From sequence record NC_135729.1: 64,000 bases of DNA. One strand, 5' to 3'. How positions within the stretch are numbered: position 1 is the stretch's first letter; the number at the start of each line of letters is the position of its first letter. This stretch comes from a phage. This document shows positions 3,470 through 54,744 of the stretch, piece by piece. Below the pieces are notes generated by a model. That model was not told the DNA's origin, made no database searches, and saw only the letters and a program-made list of their open reading frames with translations. The translations under genes were made by a program, and so were the position numbers.

Positions 3470-4447
3470 TTATTTGTTAGATTCTGCACGTGCACGAGCA
3501 AGTGCTTTTGCAACGTTTTCAGCAAGAATTTCTTCTGCGGATTTTGCAATATCATCCACAACAGGTTCGCCATCATTACCATGTTCAGTGGTGGCAAACT
3601 CTTCTTTAGTTTTATGCACCTCTGCTTCCAGCTCTTCAATTTTTGCTTGAGCTTTCTCCAGCATAGCTACGATAGGTTCGTTAGCTTTTTCCAGCATGAA
3701 GTCAACCAGTGTTGCGTGATCTTCTTCACCAACAAAGCTTAAAGCTTGAGCCTTAGTCAGCATTTTAGCTTTTTCAACTTCAACCTGGGCCTTGATGATT
3801 TCTTCAGCTTTACTCTGGGTTGCTTTCAGCTCTTCTACTTGCTTCAGCAGATCCAGATACTCTTTAGTTTTGGTTACGTCCACCGGATTCTCCTCGGTAT
3901 TTGCGGATTTTGCAACATCATCCACCTCGGTAGTTTTATCCACCTCAGCAGGTTCCTGTACCGCCTTGATCAGGTTCCCTTCTTTATCGAAGAGATCAGC
4001 GGTTACTTGTTCAAAAATCTGTTGTGTTTTTAACAGACTGTACTGATCTACCACACTAAGCTGCTTGCCTTCTTTTGCAGCCTTATGAATGGTCACGTTA
4101 TCACAACGCTCTTCCAGCCATGCAATACAAGACTCTGCGTCAGCTTGCGCCCATTCCCAATCAGGATGCTCTTTAGCCCAAGCCTCCTCTTCAATCTCAA
4201 AACCAAGCATGTGTGCAAGTGCTTTAGCATCATCATACCACATATCGAAGAAACGACGCAGGTATTCTTCAAAACTAAGCTCCACAGTAACTTGGCGAAG
4301 TGCCTTAACAATATCGTCTGTTAACTGCTCAGGCTTAAGATCACTCTTCATCAAAAGAGATACAGGTCTGTTGTTAGCGCTATAGCCTTGCGCCTTGTGG
4401 CACAGGGCAATCCCCTTCTCTTTAATAGTAATCGTTTTTTCAGACAT
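3470..4447 (-). CDS. putative scaffolding protein
   Basis: 325 aa, strongly acidic, Glu/Lys/Ala-rich predicted coiled coil, between portal and capsid genes. Confidence 0.5.
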   Translation of the reverse strand: MSEKTITIKEKGIALCHKAQGYSANNRPVSLLMKSDLKPEQLTDDIVKALRQVTVELSFEEYLRRFFDMWYDDAKALAHMLGFEIEEEAWAKEHPDWEWAQADAESCIAWLEERCDNVTIHKAAKEGKQLSVVDQYSLLKTQQIFEQVTADLFDKEGNLIKAVQEPAEVDKTTEVDDVAKSANTEENPVDVTKTKEYLDLLKQVEELKATQSKAEEIIKAQVEVEKAKMLTKAQALSFVGEEDHATLVDFMLEKANEPIVAMLEKAQAKIEELEAEVHKTKEEFATTEHGNDGEPVVDDIAKSAEEILAENVAKALARARAESNK

Positions 4448-9243: not shown

Positions 9244-9320
9244 TGGTCTCCACGGAGTGATTCGAACACTCGACCTCCTGATCCCAAATCAGGCGCTCTA
9301 CCAAGCTGAGCTACGCGGAG
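9244..9320 (-). tRNA. tRNA-Pro (anticodon UGG)
   Basis: Cloverleaf read by eye on minus strand; anticodon loop UUUGGGA; T-loop TTCGAAT; C1:G72 pair; CCA encoded. Confidence 0.8.
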
Positions 9321-9331
9321 TATCTACTATT

Positions 9332-9406
9332 TGGTGGCCCTGGGTGGAATTGAACCACCGTCTGGCGATTATGAGTCGCTTGCTTGAACCTTCCAGCTAC
9401 AGGGCC
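9332..9406 (-). tRNA. tRNA-Met (anticodon CAU; could be Ile2/lysidine type)
   Basis: Acceptor GGCCCTG/CAGGGCC; anticodon loop CTCATAA; T-arm GGTGG-TTCAATT-CCACC; CCA encoded. Confidence 0.7.
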
Positions 9407-9407
9407 A

Positions 9408-9483
9408 TGGTGCTGATGGCAGGACTTGAACCCGCAACCTATTGATTACAAATCAATTGCACTACCAATTGTGCTACATCAGC
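9408..9483 (-). tRNA. tRNA-Thr (anticodon UGU)
   Basis: Acceptor GCTGATG/CATCAGC; D-arm GCAC-AATTGGTA-GTGC; anticodon loop TTTGTAA; CCA encoded. Confidence 0.8.
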
Positions 9484-9488
9484 AAAAA

Positions 9489-9587
9489 GGTGCTAGGCGG
9501 TGGAATCGAACCACCTATGTATTCAACGACTACCTCGTCTATTTTCAGGATTAAAAATCCTCGCCCTTGCCAAAGGGCTTACCTAGC
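9489..9587 (-). tRNA. atypical tRNA-like element (99 nt; candidate anticodon UUU)
   Basis: Canonical acceptor, D-arm, anticodon-like hairpin and T-arm (GGTGG-TTCGATT-CCACC), but about 29 nt separate anticodon stem and T-stem; ends in CC not CCA. Confidence 0.35.
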
Positions 9588-9685
9588 TCAATATGTTGAC
9601 CATGTTGCTAGTCGGCGATGACGACTGTAACATTTGATAATCCGGTTCTGCTTCCGGCTTTCGCTTAATTGCAAGGTCAACAATG

Positions 9686-9776
9686 TGGCGGAGAGTAATG
9701 GAATCGAACCATCATCGAGTCATCCTCAACGGGACGGTTTTCAAGACCGCTTGAGCACCATTGCTCCCTACCCTCC
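9686..9776 (-). tRNA. tRNA-Ser (anticodon UGA), type II
   Basis: Acceptor GGAGGGT/ACTCTCC; anticodon loop CTTGAAA; long variable arm; 91 nt; CCA encoded. Confidence 0.7.
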
Positions 9777-9891
9777 TTTATAAATTATACTGATAATGAC
9801 ACTGATTTTCGAGCAGTTAGTGACTAGTATAAACGACGATAAATATCAATGCCATTATCTGTATTATTTATGCATCTAAAAAATATAAATT

Positions 9892-9978
9892 TGGTGGGGA
9901 GTGGTGGAGTCGAACCACCCGAGTCGCAATGACAATAGATTTACAGTCTACACCGCTACCTCTACGGGATAACTCCCC
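9892..9978 (-). tRNA. tRNA-Tyr (anticodon GUA), type II
   Basis: Acceptor GGGGAGT/ACTCCCC; anticodon loop CTGTAAA; T-arm GGTGG-TTCGACT-CCACC; 87 nt; CCA encoded. Confidence 0.75.
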
Positions 9979-9982
9979 AATT

Positions 9983-10057
9983 TGGCACCCCGTACTGGAC
10001 TCGAACCAGTGTCAACGGCTTAGAAGGCCGCTGCTTTATCCACTAAGCTAACAGGGC
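9983..10057 (-). tRNA. tRNA-Arg (anticodon UCU)
   Basis: D-arm GCTT-AGTGGATA-AAGC; anticodon loop CTTCTAA; T-arm ACTGG-TTCGAGT-CCAGT; CCA encoded. Confidence 0.75.
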
Positions 10058-38576: not shown

Positions 38577-39626
38577 ATGAATTTAACACCTCGCAGCACC
38601 ATGGTACACGGCATGAAAGAAAAACAGAACGGTTTCGAACCTATGAGTAATAAAATGTTTGGTATGCCGGGTGGTATTATGGAAACATACAGCTACCCAA
38701 CACCTGTTGTTGACCACGTTCTTTATATCGACGATTTGGAAGACTTACAAGATCATATGTCTCGTCTGCAGACGATCCGTATGGCTCAGCCGGAAGAAAG
38801 CATTCGGGTGATCATCAATAGCCCTGGGGGTTGCGTGCACATTGCAATGGCCTATCTGCAGGCATTCCGCGAGTCTCAGGCAAGCGTTGTTGCACATGCT
38901 GAAGGGATGTGCTGCTCTGCTGGAACAATCTTATGGCTTGGTTGTAAAGAACGTACTGTGGCTCCGGACACAGAGTTTATGTTCCACTACTATCAAGGTG
39001 GCACTTATGGTAACGGTGTGAACATGAATACTCAGGTCAGCTACTGGAAAAAACGTTTTGAACGCCTGATCGAAAAATACTACGGTGGGGTGCTAACAGA
39101 AGATGAGATCGCATCCATCACAGCTGGTGGCGAAGTGTGGTTGGACGGAGAAGAGCTGGCAGCACGCACTGGAGCTATTATTCTGGATGAAGGCAACATA
39201 CAACGCATCCAGAACGGACAAAAACCGAAAAAGCTTCTGGCAAAAGGTGATGAAGAAGGCGTGTTAGGTGAAGCAGGTCTTCCGGAGATTCACCAGTGCA
39301 CATCTTTAGATGAGTTAGTTCATGCTGTTGAATCTGCAAAAGCGGGTGGTTCGAAAGGTGATGTTCACACTGTGCTCCTGAATCTGCAGATGGAGAGTGG
39401 CGAGACCGTCAGAATTGCCCTGGGTGAGATTACTTCAGAAGATCTGCAGAGATTCTCTGTCGTTGAACTTCAGGATATTCTGTCTCAATTGAAGACTACT
39501 CTGAACGGCGGTGAAGAGGTTAAGGTGAAAGATAAGACGCGCAAGCGTCTGGTGGACAATATTATTAAAACAGCAAAAGAGCTCAATGAAAAAATCCTGG
39601 GTGCAGGAATTGTCGAAGAAGCTTAA
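38577..39626 (+). CDS. ClpP-like serine protease with C-terminal extension
   Basis: IINSPGG hallmark, Ser-containing GMCCSAGT, His-containing FMFHYYQG; 349 aa. Confidence 0.5.
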   Translation: MNLTPRSTMVHGMKEKQNGFEPMSNKMFGMPGGIMETYSYPTPVVDHVLYIDDLEDLQDHMSRLQTIRMAQPEESIRVIINSPGGCVHIAMAYLQAFRESQASVVAHAEGMCCSAGTILWLGCKERTVAPDTEFMFHYYQGGTYGNGVNMNTQVSYWKKRFERLIEKYYGGVLTEDEIASITAGGEVWLDGEELAARTGAIILDEGNIQRIQNGQKPKKLLAKGDEEGVLGEAGLPEIHQCTSLDELVHAVESAKAGGSKGDVHTVLLNLQMESGETVRIALGEITSEDLQRFSVVELQDILSQLKTTLNGGEEVKVKDKTRKRLVDNIIKTAKELNEKILGAGIVEEA

Positions 39627-51512: not shown

Positions 51513-51632
51513 AGCACCGAGCCCACACAGGTTCCTCATGCTAAAGCATGGCCTGAAGAGGCAAACGTGCATAATTCCAGTGCATTGGAACATATAAACC
51601 CTGTTCACATTCTCATTTCCAGAGGAGATTTC

Positions 51633-51848
51633 ATGAAGATAGAAATATTTGGTGGAGCTGACAACACTCGTGGCCTGATTTACCTTGAATTCGATGAATC
51701 ATACCTGCCAGAGGTGTTAAATATAGACTCTGTTGCTGAGGCTTTGGGAGTAAGTCCTAAAGATCTCTACTCTGGTGCTGAGATTGATGGTTGGGAGGAG
51801 ACCATGAACATTGATTTCAGTGAAGTAGGTGATGAACCACTGGACTGA
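51633..51848 (+). CDS. small acidic protein
   Basis: ATG after AGAGGAGA; last plus-strand gene before the non-coding region. Confidence 0.4.
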   Translation: MKIEIFGGADNTRGLIYLEFDESYLPEVLNIDSVAEALGVSPKDLYSGAEIDGWEETMNIDFSEVGDEPLD

Positions 51849-52023
51849 CACACAATTAGCTACCCGGCTAAAGTGCTGGGAGCACCTATAACACATCTTT
51901 CAACTAAATTTCCTACCACCACAATCACTTACCTCCCACACATGACTGTTTGCTTGTTTAGTGAGCAGTCATGCCTTGACATTCTTGCCTATCCTGATAA
52001 AATTAAGTTCTTCTCTTTTCTTT

Positions 52024-52050
52024 TACCGAGTAATTCGGGTTTTCTGTTCT
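52024..52050 (+). terminator. putative terminator closing the plus-strand block
   Basis: CCGAG-taat-TCGGG followed by TTTTCTGTTCTCTT. Confidence 0.35.
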
Positions 52051-53381
52051 CTTCGGTTTGAAGGGGTATAGAGATACACCTGAGTGAACAGGGTGAACAA
52101 CCGAACCATTAGCTATGGCATTAGCATGGCGAAGCGGACGGGTGACGAAAGAGGGGCCGGAGGACACCAGTCACTGCCATATGATATATGGGTGATAACC
52201 TGAAGAGTCTGAATAAGTGTTTAAGTACCAGTCAGAGGAAAAGGTGAATGGTAGCCGAAGGGGGGAGGGGGGTTTCTTGTATCTTTAATTTGTATATTAT
52301 GTATACACTTGTAAACCAATCTAATCTGAATCTGTTTACCACGCAAAGCGGATAGAGACAAATATTGCCTATTAAACTTGAATTATTTATAGAAAATACC
52401 ACAACACCCCTTAAGTCTTTGATTTTACACACAAATCCTACAGATATTCAACCTCCATATTTAACATACTTGTAACATATTCCATACTCTACCTGTCTGA
52501 TCAACTCACCCAACTACATCCTCCATATTTCCCCTGTCTGTACTACCCCTGCCCCGCCTGGAGTCCCGTCATATCTGGCTTTCCAGCAAATATCCCACCC
52601 ACAAATATCATTGCCTGAAGAGGGTTTCCTCCCATAATACATGCCTTACCTGAAGAGCGCTTCATATACCCCGTAAATTTTTTAATTGACACCCTCCCCG
52701 CCGCCGGAGGGGGTTGGCTTTTCCCACACAGACCTGAAGAGCCAGCCAGAAATATCTGAACAGGTCCAGTTATACCACGATTTTGACCTGACCGACAGGA
52801 GTGCTGCCAGGCGGACGAAATGGGAATACTTCTCATTCTTATAACAATTCTCAAATATCGAGGCAGTGAGGCAAATTAATAGGTGAGGCCGTTCACATAG
52901 TGGCACAACATTTGCAATCTATTTTGTGTGGGGAATGAGAATACATATCATTGTGAGAACCATTATCATTACGGGCAATTTAACATAATACCCATTATGC
53001 GCACCACTGGCGATCCATACAGGGATTGATAACATGAGTTACTGTTTACACACATAACAATTATATTTCTTACTATTTGTGTGGGATATAGTTAGCAGCC
53101 GATAGATTAGATATTGACCTGTGGACTTCCAACAGTCTAGACGTCTAAGCGCCCACACAACAAGGCTTATACATACACAACTGAATGTAAACAGGGCCGC
53201 AAAAATGCTACCATACCAGCTTGTAAATTTTTCATACAGCACTTGACAAAGAGGAGAAAAACTTGTCTGACACTTTAGACACCTTTGACACACTGGGCAT
53301 ACTAAACACTGGATATAATAACAATTGTTACTATTGCATGCCTCACTGTTCACGTATAGACTATTTGCTCAAAAATTATAA

Positions 53382-53669
53382 GCCATGCCATTCGTTTGCA
53401 TGATAACGATTAGCAAGTTAATAATCTTTCACTGGCTATGCCAGGTGACCTTTGGTCACCCCTTCGGGTGTTTCTATGACATAATATAAAAGCAGGGCAA
53501 CTATTAGAAGATCTATAGTTGCCTTGCTTGTTATGTCATGATTAACTAAATACAAGGCAACTATGATCTGATTAATAGTTTGCAGGCAAACTATCACGGG
53601 GGTGATGGTTACTGCTTTTATATTATGTCGCGACTCCGTCGCGCCATGCCATTCGTTTGCATAGTTGCC
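53382..53669. repeat. iteron / inverted-repeat array (GGCAACTAT x6, 18-bp inverted repeat, 20-bp direct repeat)
   Basis: GGCAACTAT at 53496, 53556, 53585 (GGCAAACTAT) and inverted at 53515, 53575, 53661; inverted repeat 53478-53495 / 53612-53629; direct repeat GCCATGCCATTCGTTTGCAT at 53382 and 53643. Confidence 0.7.
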
Positions 53670-54278
53670 TTATTGTTACAGGTAAAATAATCACATTATT
53701 AATTATTTCTTATCTTTCTCTTAGTCATCTAATGATTCCAGTCAGTATAGTAATGTACAGTAGACATTAGACGACTAAAGATTTCTCTGTTTATGATAAC
53801 TCATCGTGATAATTTCGGACTGTTTACGAAAAATGTTGACACCTGAGCTGATTTATGTTATGCAGTTTACACGAATAATTATTTTATGCAGGTATTGACT
53901 ATTCCGTTATTCTGTGGTTGGAATAAATACTTTGCAGGCTATAGAATGGCGTGCGTACGTGAATTCTTAGATCTGGCGGCTATAGTTATACTCGATTTTT
54001 CGCGTAGGACACGCTTTCTATGTTGTGTAAGTGTATGACTTATAAAGATTTTTAGTTGTTGACAAGATATTGGAGATGTGCATCAGGTTAAAATTTGTGC
54101 AATAGCGGCATTACGTGCACTTTTGGGAGAGAAAACGGGTAAAAATGGCCCTGCTACCACACAGTGAAAGATTATGCAATAGTTATTTTATATGTATATT
54201 TGTACAGTGTGTGGGATTAATGGCTAGTCAATTATTCCACTTGCCGGGTAGGGCCGTTTATGGTAGGAGAAGAGCAGA

Positions 54279-54305
54279 CAAAAAGAAAGGGGCCTTTAAG
54301 CCCCT
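54279..54305 (-). terminator. rho-independent terminator closing the minus-strand block
   Basis: AGGGGCC-tttaa-GCCCCT stem followed on minus strand by TTTCTTTTT. Confidence 0.55.
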
Positions 54306-54324
54306 TGATAATTCAGTTAAGAAA

Positions 54325-54744
54325 TTATAATGATTCGTATATTTCAAAAATCCGATTTGCCAGGTCGTTACGGTAGCGGAATTTTTCATCACGTTTGATC
54401 ATCAGATCTTTAAAGCCGTATTCTTTAAGCACTTCATTAACTTTATGGCGGCACACCTTCATATTGTCCTGAGCGTCACCAATAAACCTGTTGCTATGGT
54501 GCATGGCTTTAATTTCTTCTTCCAGGACCAGGGCAACTATGCGGACCGGATCAAGCTGATAGGCGGTAACATCAATGCGGCATTGTAAACGGCTTTTTAC
54601 GTCTGCCACCGGATATACTGCAACCTCTTCCCCGTCAACATTGACAATAATTAGTTTACCATCGATTTCGAATCCTTTCGCCGCCGGACCGTGACAAAAA
54701 GCGTTATCAAAGCTATATGCCGGATTATCAGATTTAATGTTCAT
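54325..54744 (-). CDS. hypothetical protein
   Basis: 139-aa ORF; AAGAGG Shine-Dalgarno; own promoter at 54794-54822. Confidence 0.45.
   Translation of the reverse strand: MNIKSDNPAYSFDNAFCHGPAAKGFEIDGKLIIVNVDGEEVAVYPVADVKSRLQCRIDVTAYQLDPVRIVALVLEEEIKAMHHSNRFIGDAQDNMKVCRHKVNEVLKEYGFKDLMIKRDEKFRYRNDLANRIFEIYESL

Follow-up and report, generated by a model that had tools for sequence, protein, structure and literature searches.

The gene-free locus and the genome termini

The present analysis concerns a region of about 2.5 kb, at positions 51850-54330 of a phage sequence of 64,000 nucleotides (record NC_135729.1; this whole stretch is referred to as the window), in which two convergent operons meet in non-coding DNA and onto which the virion ends of related phages map. 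The window derives from a Vequintavirus, an rV5-like myovirus of E. coli, and the region matches 121 phage records, all of them Vequintavirus, at 88-97% identity. Nineteen unverified and unannotated records labelled "Campylobacter phage" (GenBank MG0656xx), 92-97% identical to the region, are Vequintavirus genomes as well, and their host label is likely to be wrong. In rV5 the locus lies between ORF163 and ORF164, and in the genome paper of that phage (Kropinski et al. 2013) it appears as a grey "non-coding" box, without content or function assigned; the same paper reports a skew change at 104.4-105.5 kb in rV5. In the window, GC skew flips sign in the region.

Convergent gene ends, at 51848 on the plus strand and at 54325 on the minus strand, had been proposed in the initial annotation of this DNA, along with the absence of genes in between, and both statements hold. 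The two ends are found among the open reading frames (ORFs) of the window, and the annotations of relatives agree. No ORF within 51850-54330 is conserved in the 21 relatives compared: those outside the ultra-conserved stretch are intact in just 1-13 of them. A minus-strand ORF at 52003-52167 is intact in 20 of the 21, but it lies within the near-invariant sequence described below as island A, and it is broken by a 5-nt indel between lineages, so that island A contains no conserved ORF. Third-codon-position bias is absent from every internal ORF, to be compared with 3, 4 and 22 variable sites at the three codon positions in the flanking gene of 71 aa. A protein-coding reading of the region was rejected on both grounds, and about 2 kb around the terminal repeat encode no protein. 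The minus-strand operon is closed, as had been proposed, by an intrinsic terminator (Table 1).

The virion ends, as judged from the records of relatives, fall inside this DNA. The record of HdK5 begins and ends with the same 459 bp, and this sequence maps to a 458-bp direct terminal repeat (DTR) at 52810-53267 of the window, with the left end, GGCGGACGAAATGGG, aligning to the first of these positions and the right end, ...AAAAACTTGTC, to the last one. The records of EdH4, YN3, Gotham (where it is annotated as a repeat_region), bov11CS3 and bov25_3 begin at position 1 of the DTR, and its last base closes those of ECP2303, Pr121LW and others; at least 9 records have an end at precisely one of these two positions, one of them with the repeat annotated. 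EdH4, YN3 and Gotham have two DTR copies, at the record ends, and the same sequence is thus found at both virion ends in these phages and in HdK5. A terminal redundancy of 458 bp has been reported for EdH4 and HdK5 (Korf 2019), and published repeats elsewhere include one of 328 bp in a phAPEC8-like phage and a 514-bp T7-type DTR, determined by PhageTerm, in the Vequintavirinae phage KPP-1. In Phapecoctavirus Mt1B1_P17 an exact 328-bp repeat is found at both record ends, followed by about 900 bp without genes and then by a homologue of the 139-aa protein encoded, in the window, at the minus-strand border of the region. In the record of Shigella phage CM1 (MK962749) the DTR is present twice, at 1611-2094 and 2154-2620, the second copy beginning at the same base, with about 60 bp of post-repeat sequence in between; this doubling is probably an artefact of the assembly, in which ends were joined, and makes the region look larger than it is.

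Since the virion ends of relatives map to 52810-53267, the region is most simply described as a concatemer junction, composed of right-end non-coding DNA (51850-52809), the DTR and left-end non-coding DNA (53268-54330), where the convergent operons meet at a single DTR copy, in the concatemer or in a collapsed assembly. In the virion, the first ~1.5 kb at one genome end and ~1.4 kb at the other would be gene-free. Of the roles suggested in the initial annotation, a packaging site is supported by the position of the termini, and by the GACAC repeats it had listed, which start exactly at the right DTR boundary; for a protein-titrating locus we found no evidence.

In Vequintavirus as in Phapecoctavirus (about 89% identity), the gene for the 139-aa protein (phrog_12277; 54325-54744, minus strand) is the first one met inward from the left terminal non-coding region. 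It also borders the equivalent non-coding region of Septuagintavirus (about 86% identity), and such conservation across subfamilies beside a genome end is unusual.

Table 1. Elements mapped in and around the non-coding region (window coordinates)
Feature	Position	Strand	Remarks
Hairpin, 8-bp stem CATGACTG/CAGTCATG	51941-51973	+	Just after the last plus-strand gene; abuts the promoter -35
Strong sigma-70 promoter TTGACA-N16-TGaTAAAAT (extended -10)	51976-52003	+	11/12 consensus matches plus TG; points into the non-coding region
Island A, ultra-conserved candidate structured RNA of ~265 nt	52010-52272	+	pi 0-0.03; 5' hairpins 52026-52038 and 52042-52075; long-range stem TATGGCA/TGCCATA; 3' end G6AG6
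RCCTGAAGAG copies	52198, 52613, 52648, 52732 (span 52198-52741); 51551	+	Upstream of the left DTR boundary
GC-rich hairpin CCCTCC..GGAGGG, then short T-run	52692-52711	+	Terminator-like; z -3.8 for 52640-52799
Direct terminal repeat (DTR), 458 bp	52810-53267		Record ends of relatives; virion left end begins GGCGGACGAAAT at 52810, right end stops ...AAAAACTTGTC at 53267
DTR-internal motif ATTCTCAAATATC	52847-52859
DTR-internal 18-bp tandem repeat GAGAAYNNNTATCATT x2	52937-52972
(T)GACAC x3 array, 9-bp spacing	53268-53291	+	Its first base directly follows the right DTR boundary
Hypervariable spacer	53292-53477		pi 0.16-0.29, indels; holds direct repeat copy 1, one TGTTCACG motif and the double-hairpin module
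20-bp direct repeat	copy 1 53382-53401; copy 2 53643-53662		261 bp apart; brackets the palindrome
30-bp double-hairpin module	53441-53470		In the hypervariable spacer
Island B, nested palindrome, Y-shaped three-way junction	53478-53629 (~150 nt)		DNA fold, conservation
P1 outer stem, 17-18 bp	53478-53495 / 53612-53629		Perfect Watson-Crick
P2 long hairpin of GGCAACTAT/ATAGTTGCC half-sites	53496-53584
P3 9-bp hairpin, GGGG loop	53589-53610
GC hairpin GCGAC-TCC-GTCGC with conserved GTCGCGCC	53630-53662 (together with direct repeat copy 2)
Last ATAGTTGCC	53661-53669		Overlapped by direct repeat copy 2
AT-rich tract after the palindrome	53663-53760		GC about 0.37 in the area
Intrinsic terminator of the minus-strand operon	54287-54306	-	8-bp GC-rich stem and T-run; annotated terminator in HdK5, Murica and Alma

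Repeats, palindrome and candidate RNA around the terminal repeat

Conservation was profiled on an alignment of 21 sequences, with diversity expressed as pi. Two ultra-conserved islands stand out, A at 51950-52250 and B at 53500-53650, each with pi of 0-0.03; the stretch directly after the DTR, 53250-53500, is instead hypervariable and rich in indels, pi reaching 0.29. More distant comparisons were provided by an uncultured sister lineage (L005, L025, L026, L032, L039 and others), found by means of a flanking protein and of pattern scans and just ~75-88% identical in the neighbouring genes, and by Septuagintavirus A73 and Phapecoctavirus Mt1B1_P17, in each of which the 139-aa gene adjoins a non-coding region of its own. 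Beyond the genus the DNA could not be aligned by blastn, and elements were therefore compared across genera by position and fold. Identity of the L005 lineage with A73 was considered and rejected, as the two share no nucleotide similarity and A73 has its own version of the palindrome described below. The elements of the region are kept, in sequence or in shape, among these relatives, and nearly all the repeats listed in the initial annotation proved genuine and non-random.

Short direct repeats adjoin the DTR on both sides, RCCTGAAGAG in four copies before it and TGACAY, in three to five copies, after it. The former motif occurs 6 times in the window, always on the plus strand, against 0.22 expected; the four copies originally listed are present, along with a fifth at 51551, and in the L005/L032 lineage four or five plus-strand copies are found in equivalent relative positions; Mt1B1_P17 has TCATGGCAA repeats at the corresponding position. 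As to the latter, the GACAC units had been described as helically phased: the repeats themselves are found, at 53269, 53278 and 53287, but their spacing is 9 bp and not 10.5 bp. Relatives such as CM1 and HdK5 have 4-5 TGACAY copies at the same junction, spaced by 9-11 bp and variable in number, and in all relatives the array begins directly at the boundary; L005-type phages have AGGCATAC repeats in place of the array. In CM1 and HdK5 the array unit, TGACATAATA, coincides with the first 10 nt of the left arm of P1, the outer stem of the palindrome. The internal motifs of the DTR are common to the DTR of Phapecoctavirus, and ATTCYCAAATATC and AATGAGAAT..TATCATT are shared across genera.

The hypervariable spacer, which in relatives contains 5-10 TGTTYACR repeats, includes the hairpins noted earlier, now delimited as a double-hairpin module at 53441-53470. 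A ~45-bp form of such a module, GGTGACCTTTGGTCACCCCTTCGGGTG, is single in the window and is found elsewhere, and up to three times, in relatives (L025 at 10052, 11534 and 12486; L028 at 1166-1207); it may be a movable terminator-like cassette. Before the DTR, the C-run of the hairpin at 52692-52711 is complementary to the G-run of island A, and L005 likewise has a CCCTCCC..GGGAGG hairpin.

The most prominent structure of the region is a nested palindrome in island B, predicted to fold as a Y-shaped three-way junction, with outer stem P1 enclosing hairpins P2 and P3. Two repeats recognized in the initial annotation are confirmed and belong to this arrangement, the inverted one, perfect over 18 bp, and the direct one of 20 bp. 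As single-stranded DNA, 53470-53650 folds with -45.4 kcal/mol (z -10.9) on the plus strand and with -43.4 kcal/mol (z -10.2) on the minus strand, and it is the sole strong folding outlier in a sliding scan of 51600-54700. The same Y topology was found in L005 (P1 GACATAATAACGCTGAG/CTCAGCGTTATTATGTC, z -7.1), in Mt1B1_P17, which belongs to another subfamily (P1 GCTAATAATAAGCCA/TGGCTTATTATTAGC, z -10.1), and in Septuagintavirus A73 (P1 GACACTATAAAACGAG/CTCGTTTTATAGTGTC, then GTCGCGCC, z -5.1). Over these four lineages the topology is kept through full sequence replacement or compensatory change, and P1 is in all four perfectly Watson-Crick, with no G-U pair. The palindrome always lies in the convergent non-coding region, on the side of the 139-aa gene and, where the DTR is known or could be placed by homology (the window, Mt1B1_P17 and L005), about 195-330 bp inside the left DTR copy, the distance being 211 bp in the window.

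Equal folding of both strands and the strict Watson-Crick pairing of P1 favour an element acting at the DNA level. That island B is transcribed into a functional, structured non-coding RNA appears highly improbable: its very stable structure and the topology kept across lineages would suit an RNA, and a plus-strand hairpin with a T-run at 53589-53619 resembles a terminator, but the fold is equally good on the two strands, G-U pairs are missing from P1 in four lineages, no conserved promoter lies upstream and no Rfam match was found. The flanking direct repeats, moreover, co-vary, which is not a property of an RNA stem: in L005 they have changed in concert, to two copies of GCGCCATGTTATCGTTGCAT placed 241 bp apart. 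Such a concerted change, inexplicable by a stem, points to protein-binding sites. The sequence GTCGCGCC follows P1 in the window, in L005 and in A73.

Island B had been read as an iteron array with six copies of GGCAACTAT in 53496-53669. Four of them are exact, the other two being the one-off variant GCAAACTAT, and they are inverted 9-bp half-sites which make up the arms of the palindrome, rather than repeats in the same orientation; over the whole window GGCAACTAT occurs 6 times, against 0.63 expected. These data bear on the possibility that palindrome, flanking repeats and AT-rich tract together are a replication origin, either a duplex origin opened at the AT tract or a single-strand initiation signal recognized by primase or RNA polymerase, whose proximity to the terminus would be incidental or serve end replication. 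In every lineage the repeated motifs adjoin an AT-rich tract, whose AT content is much higher in L005 and L032 and which is T-rich in Mt1B1_P17, and GC skew changes sign at the region. Strongly folded single-stranded DNA elements are typical of single-strand origins, such as those of G4, M13 and rolling-circle plasmids (sso), which also speaks for an origin. In the L005/L032 lineage, moreover, the putative DTR contains 2-3 perfect DnaA boxes (TTATCCACA) in a span of ~50 bp, at ~3815-3860 in L005 and ~3025-3060 in L032 (window orientation); at the homologous place the window has none.

An origin nevertheless seems rather unlikely to us. The only long direct repeat has two copies, so that no set of three or more regularly spaced, same-orientation repeats of ~17-22 bp is present, and the shorter repeats are the inverted half-sites just mentioned; no DnaA-box cluster was found in 51850-54330 and no initiator-like gene is adjacent to it. 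The change of skew coincides with the switch in the direction of transcription, and a motif common to the palindrome and the DTR boundary suggests involvement of the cutting machinery.

At the opposite flank of the DTR, island A follows a strong promoter of the host type, which in the divergent lineage reads TTGCAA-N17-TGcTATAAT at the same position. Upstream of it, the hairpin at 51941-51973, replaced by a different hairpin, ATACCTAC/GTAGGTAT, in the L005-type lineage, is the probable end of the plus-strand operon. The initial annotation had placed the plus-strand terminator at 52024-52050, a reading which we abandon: the hairpin found there is weak, of 5 bp, and follows the strong conserved promoter at about 15 nt; it is more likely the 5' hairpin of a transcript, and the hairpin at 51941-51973 is the better terminator candidate for the upstream operon.

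The sequence that follows the promoter is nearly invariant within the genus, and its conservation stops right after the G6AG6 tract (52260-52272). Between lineages its hairpins are preserved by compensatory changes, from CCGA/TCGG to CCAGAA/TTCTGG and from TATGGCA/TGCCATA to TATCGCA/TGCGATG. The structure proposed by RNAalifold comprises 41 predicted pairs, 98.8% paired, and 9 of them feature double changes, against 0-1 in slid controls; the many G-U pairs assign it to the plus strand. Searches against Rfam 15, at gathering thresholds and at E<=10, returned only tRNAs, elsewhere in the window, the best hits in 51700-54500 being chance-level eukaryotic families. Mimicry of a host sequence was rejected, as island A has no match in 5,426 E. 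coli genomes. An embedded non-coding RNA had been suggested for the region in general terms; it is plausible, from sequence comparison, that the promoter-driven island A is one, and 52010-52272, where we place this candidate, had not been flagged and had in part been called a terminator.

Proposed processing of the concatemer junction and comparison with known systems

The interpretation we favour, as fairly probable, is that the region would be the concatemer junction of a phage with a short DTR of the T7 type, and that its elements would be packaging and processing signals, unusually elaborate ones. With such cis signals the packaging machinery would identify the junction, make cuts at the two boundaries of the repeat and bring about its duplication. 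The TGACAY/GACATAAT sites would attract a protein that binds a specific sequence, in the simplest case the small terminase, and the palindrome, in the course of processing, would extrude or fold back into a hairpin, in the way proposed for the T7 hairpin intermediate; the need for repeat duplication and the hairpin intermediate in T7 are summarized in PMC4281155. The strong promoter, 800 bp upstream of the repeat, would produce a structured RNA of ~265 nt ending in G6AG6, for which the simplest ideas are that transcription runs toward the junction, as it does from phiOR of T7, or that a primer or R-loop is formed. The motif common to the boundary array and to the arms of P1 is the main argument for tying the palindrome to the formation of the termini and not to replication.

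Several features recall T7 and T3, whose terminal repeats are of 160 bp or ~230 bp: a short exact repeat is found at both virion ends and once per concatemer junction, short direct repeats come right after it (CTAAAG x8 after the 160-bp repeat of T7, TGACAY here), an upstream promoter is directed at the junction (phiOR at 39229 in T7, here the one starting at 51976), and an inverted repeat lies near the terminal repeat, a hairpin intermediate having been described for T7. Differently from T7, the present phage is a ~137-kb myovirus whose promoters are of the host type and which has no phage RNA polymerase; its junction is enclosed by convergent operons and embedded in 2.5 kb of non-coding DNA.

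A number of points weigh against the interpretation as junction signals. In T7 the structured site is found on the opposite side of the repeat, and its folding is far weaker (z -3.6); the present palindrome is on the left-end side and much larger, a three-way junction of 150 nt with z about -10. A palindrome followed by an AT-rich tract would also fit an origin. The DTR boundaries were taken from the records of relatives, the window itself having one copy, as a collapsed or concatemer form would, and the PhageTerm run of one paper called a Vequintavirus headful-packaged. The evidence for an RNA in island A comes from two lineages, with a structure derived from the same sequences, and the thermodynamic z of a single sequence is not significant (-1.2), so that the case rests on the comparative data.

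A large untranslated terminal region is also known in T5, whose injection-stop (iss) region, in the terminal repeat, is full of repeats, inverted repeats and palindromes and has 8 DnaA boxes (bioRxiv 10.1101/866236). The locus described here resembles it in being untranslated, dense in repeats and palindromes and conserved in architecture among relatives, with DnaA boxes in one related lineage. By analogy, the terminal untranslated DNA could act in DNA entry, where it would pause, anchor or protect the incoming end until early functions are made. Both ends are likewise gene-free here, and one lineage has DnaA boxes in its DTR, but a role of this kind is, in our opinion, very unlikely. The T5 repeat spans ~10 kb, carries the pre-early genes and includes iss, whereas the DTR here is of 458 bp, without pre-early genes and with the palindrome outside it; ordered DnaA boxes are absent from 51850-54330, the TTATCCACA cluster being limited to the L005/L032 lineage; and two-step injection has not been reported for rV5-like phages.

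In shape only, the fold calls to mind the inverted terminal repeat (ITR) of parvoviruses such as adeno-associated virus (AAV), a nested palindrome of ~125-150 nt with an outer stem and two inner hairpins, followed by a short specific sequence, near the genome end. The AAV ITR, a T-shaped hairpin that serves as origin and packaging signal, occupies the very ends of a single-stranded genome, in inverted orientation at one relative to the other. Here, in contrast, the palindrome occurs once, ~210 bp inward of a direct repeat in double-stranded DNA, no second copy was found in the scan of 51600-54700, and we know of no Rep/HUH nuclease in rV5-like phages.

A more speculative possibility, which we consider distinctly unlikely, is that the Y palindrome is an element for hairpin priming or resolution, snapping back after a nick to prime copying of the 458-bp repeat, or, separately, that the G6AG6 RNA forms a persistent R-loop or quadruplex priming replication toward the junction, or is a packaging RNA. 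Precedents are the parvovirus terminal hairpin for snap-back priming, and ColE1 RNA II and the mitochondrial CSBII transcript for primer-like RNAs. If true, either the hairpin-priming or the G6AG6-RNA reading would represent a previously undescribed mechanism for terminal-repeat myoviruses, shared across two subfamilies.

Already known, of all this, were the box labelled non-coding (2013) and a redundancy of 458 bp (2019 and GenBank records). The locus is the same as the box of Kropinski et al. 2013, where termini, palindrome and promoter/RNA element are not described. In the literature covered, which was incomplete, we found no description of genome ends within the box, of a Y palindrome shared across genera or of a promoter-driven structured element, nor any described function for the region or any Vequintavirus transcriptome. 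The presence of the termini explains why this long-known box exists. Phages of the rV5 type are among the commonest coliphage isolates, are used in therapy cocktails and form part of the BASEL collection. The analysis defines compact cis elements amenable to testing, namely the boundary repeats, the Y palindrome of Vequintavirus, the uncultured sister lineage, Septuagintavirus and Phapecoctavirus, and the putative promoter-driven structured RNA, which bear on the general question of how short terminal repeats are duplicated. They also help to orient and close assemblies correctly, and are of concern for engineering, as deletions or insertions within them may block packaging.

Neighbouring genes and other motifs

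The flanking proteins have no Pfam domain and belong to PHROG families of unknown function. A neighbouring gene is annotated as 'DNA translocase FtsK', without an FtsK domain. FtsK-orienting polar sequences (KOPS) were considered and rejected: GGGNAGGG is modestly enriched, 4 of the 10 copies of the window falling in the region, because of the G- and C-runs. No Chi sites were found in the region.

In the divergent lineage a homing-endonuclease gene of the HNH_3 type (Pfam E 1e-18), absent from the window, is inserted between island A and the CCTGAAGAG repeats (L005 8716-9486; L032, in window orientation, ~1500-2200). A GC-rich repeat of ~45-95 bp, GCTTCGCTCCTCGCGGAGTAGCTACGCTACGAC-like, is scattered in the non-coding region of the metagenomic relative L032 (~1400-1500, 2540-2600, 3697-3740, 3770-3870 and 4200-4270, in the same orientation), with one copy within the P3 hairpin stem-loop, and looks like a small mobile element. 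Two short blocks, at 54040-54085 and 53975-54003 (TTGTTGACA...ATGTGCATCA; CTATAGTTATAC.CGATTTTTC), are 83-92% identical in the divergent lineage, within DNA that is otherwise unalignable.

The motif CCCACACA occurs 15 times in the window, against 1.8 expected, and 7 of these sites lie in or beside the region; examples are those at 51522, 51935, 52723, 52925, 53078, 53152, 54208, 55511 and 60149. The last two are located ~20 nt upstream of minus-strand gene starts, in the common context AAGGGGCRAGA..TTGC CCCACACA, and the motif may be regulatory or associated with promoters. Far from the region, seven predicted tRNA genes are clustered on the minus strand at 9244-10057; an ARAGORN call at 9489-9587, of undetermined identity and with a four-base anticodon (atcc), is not reported by Rfam.

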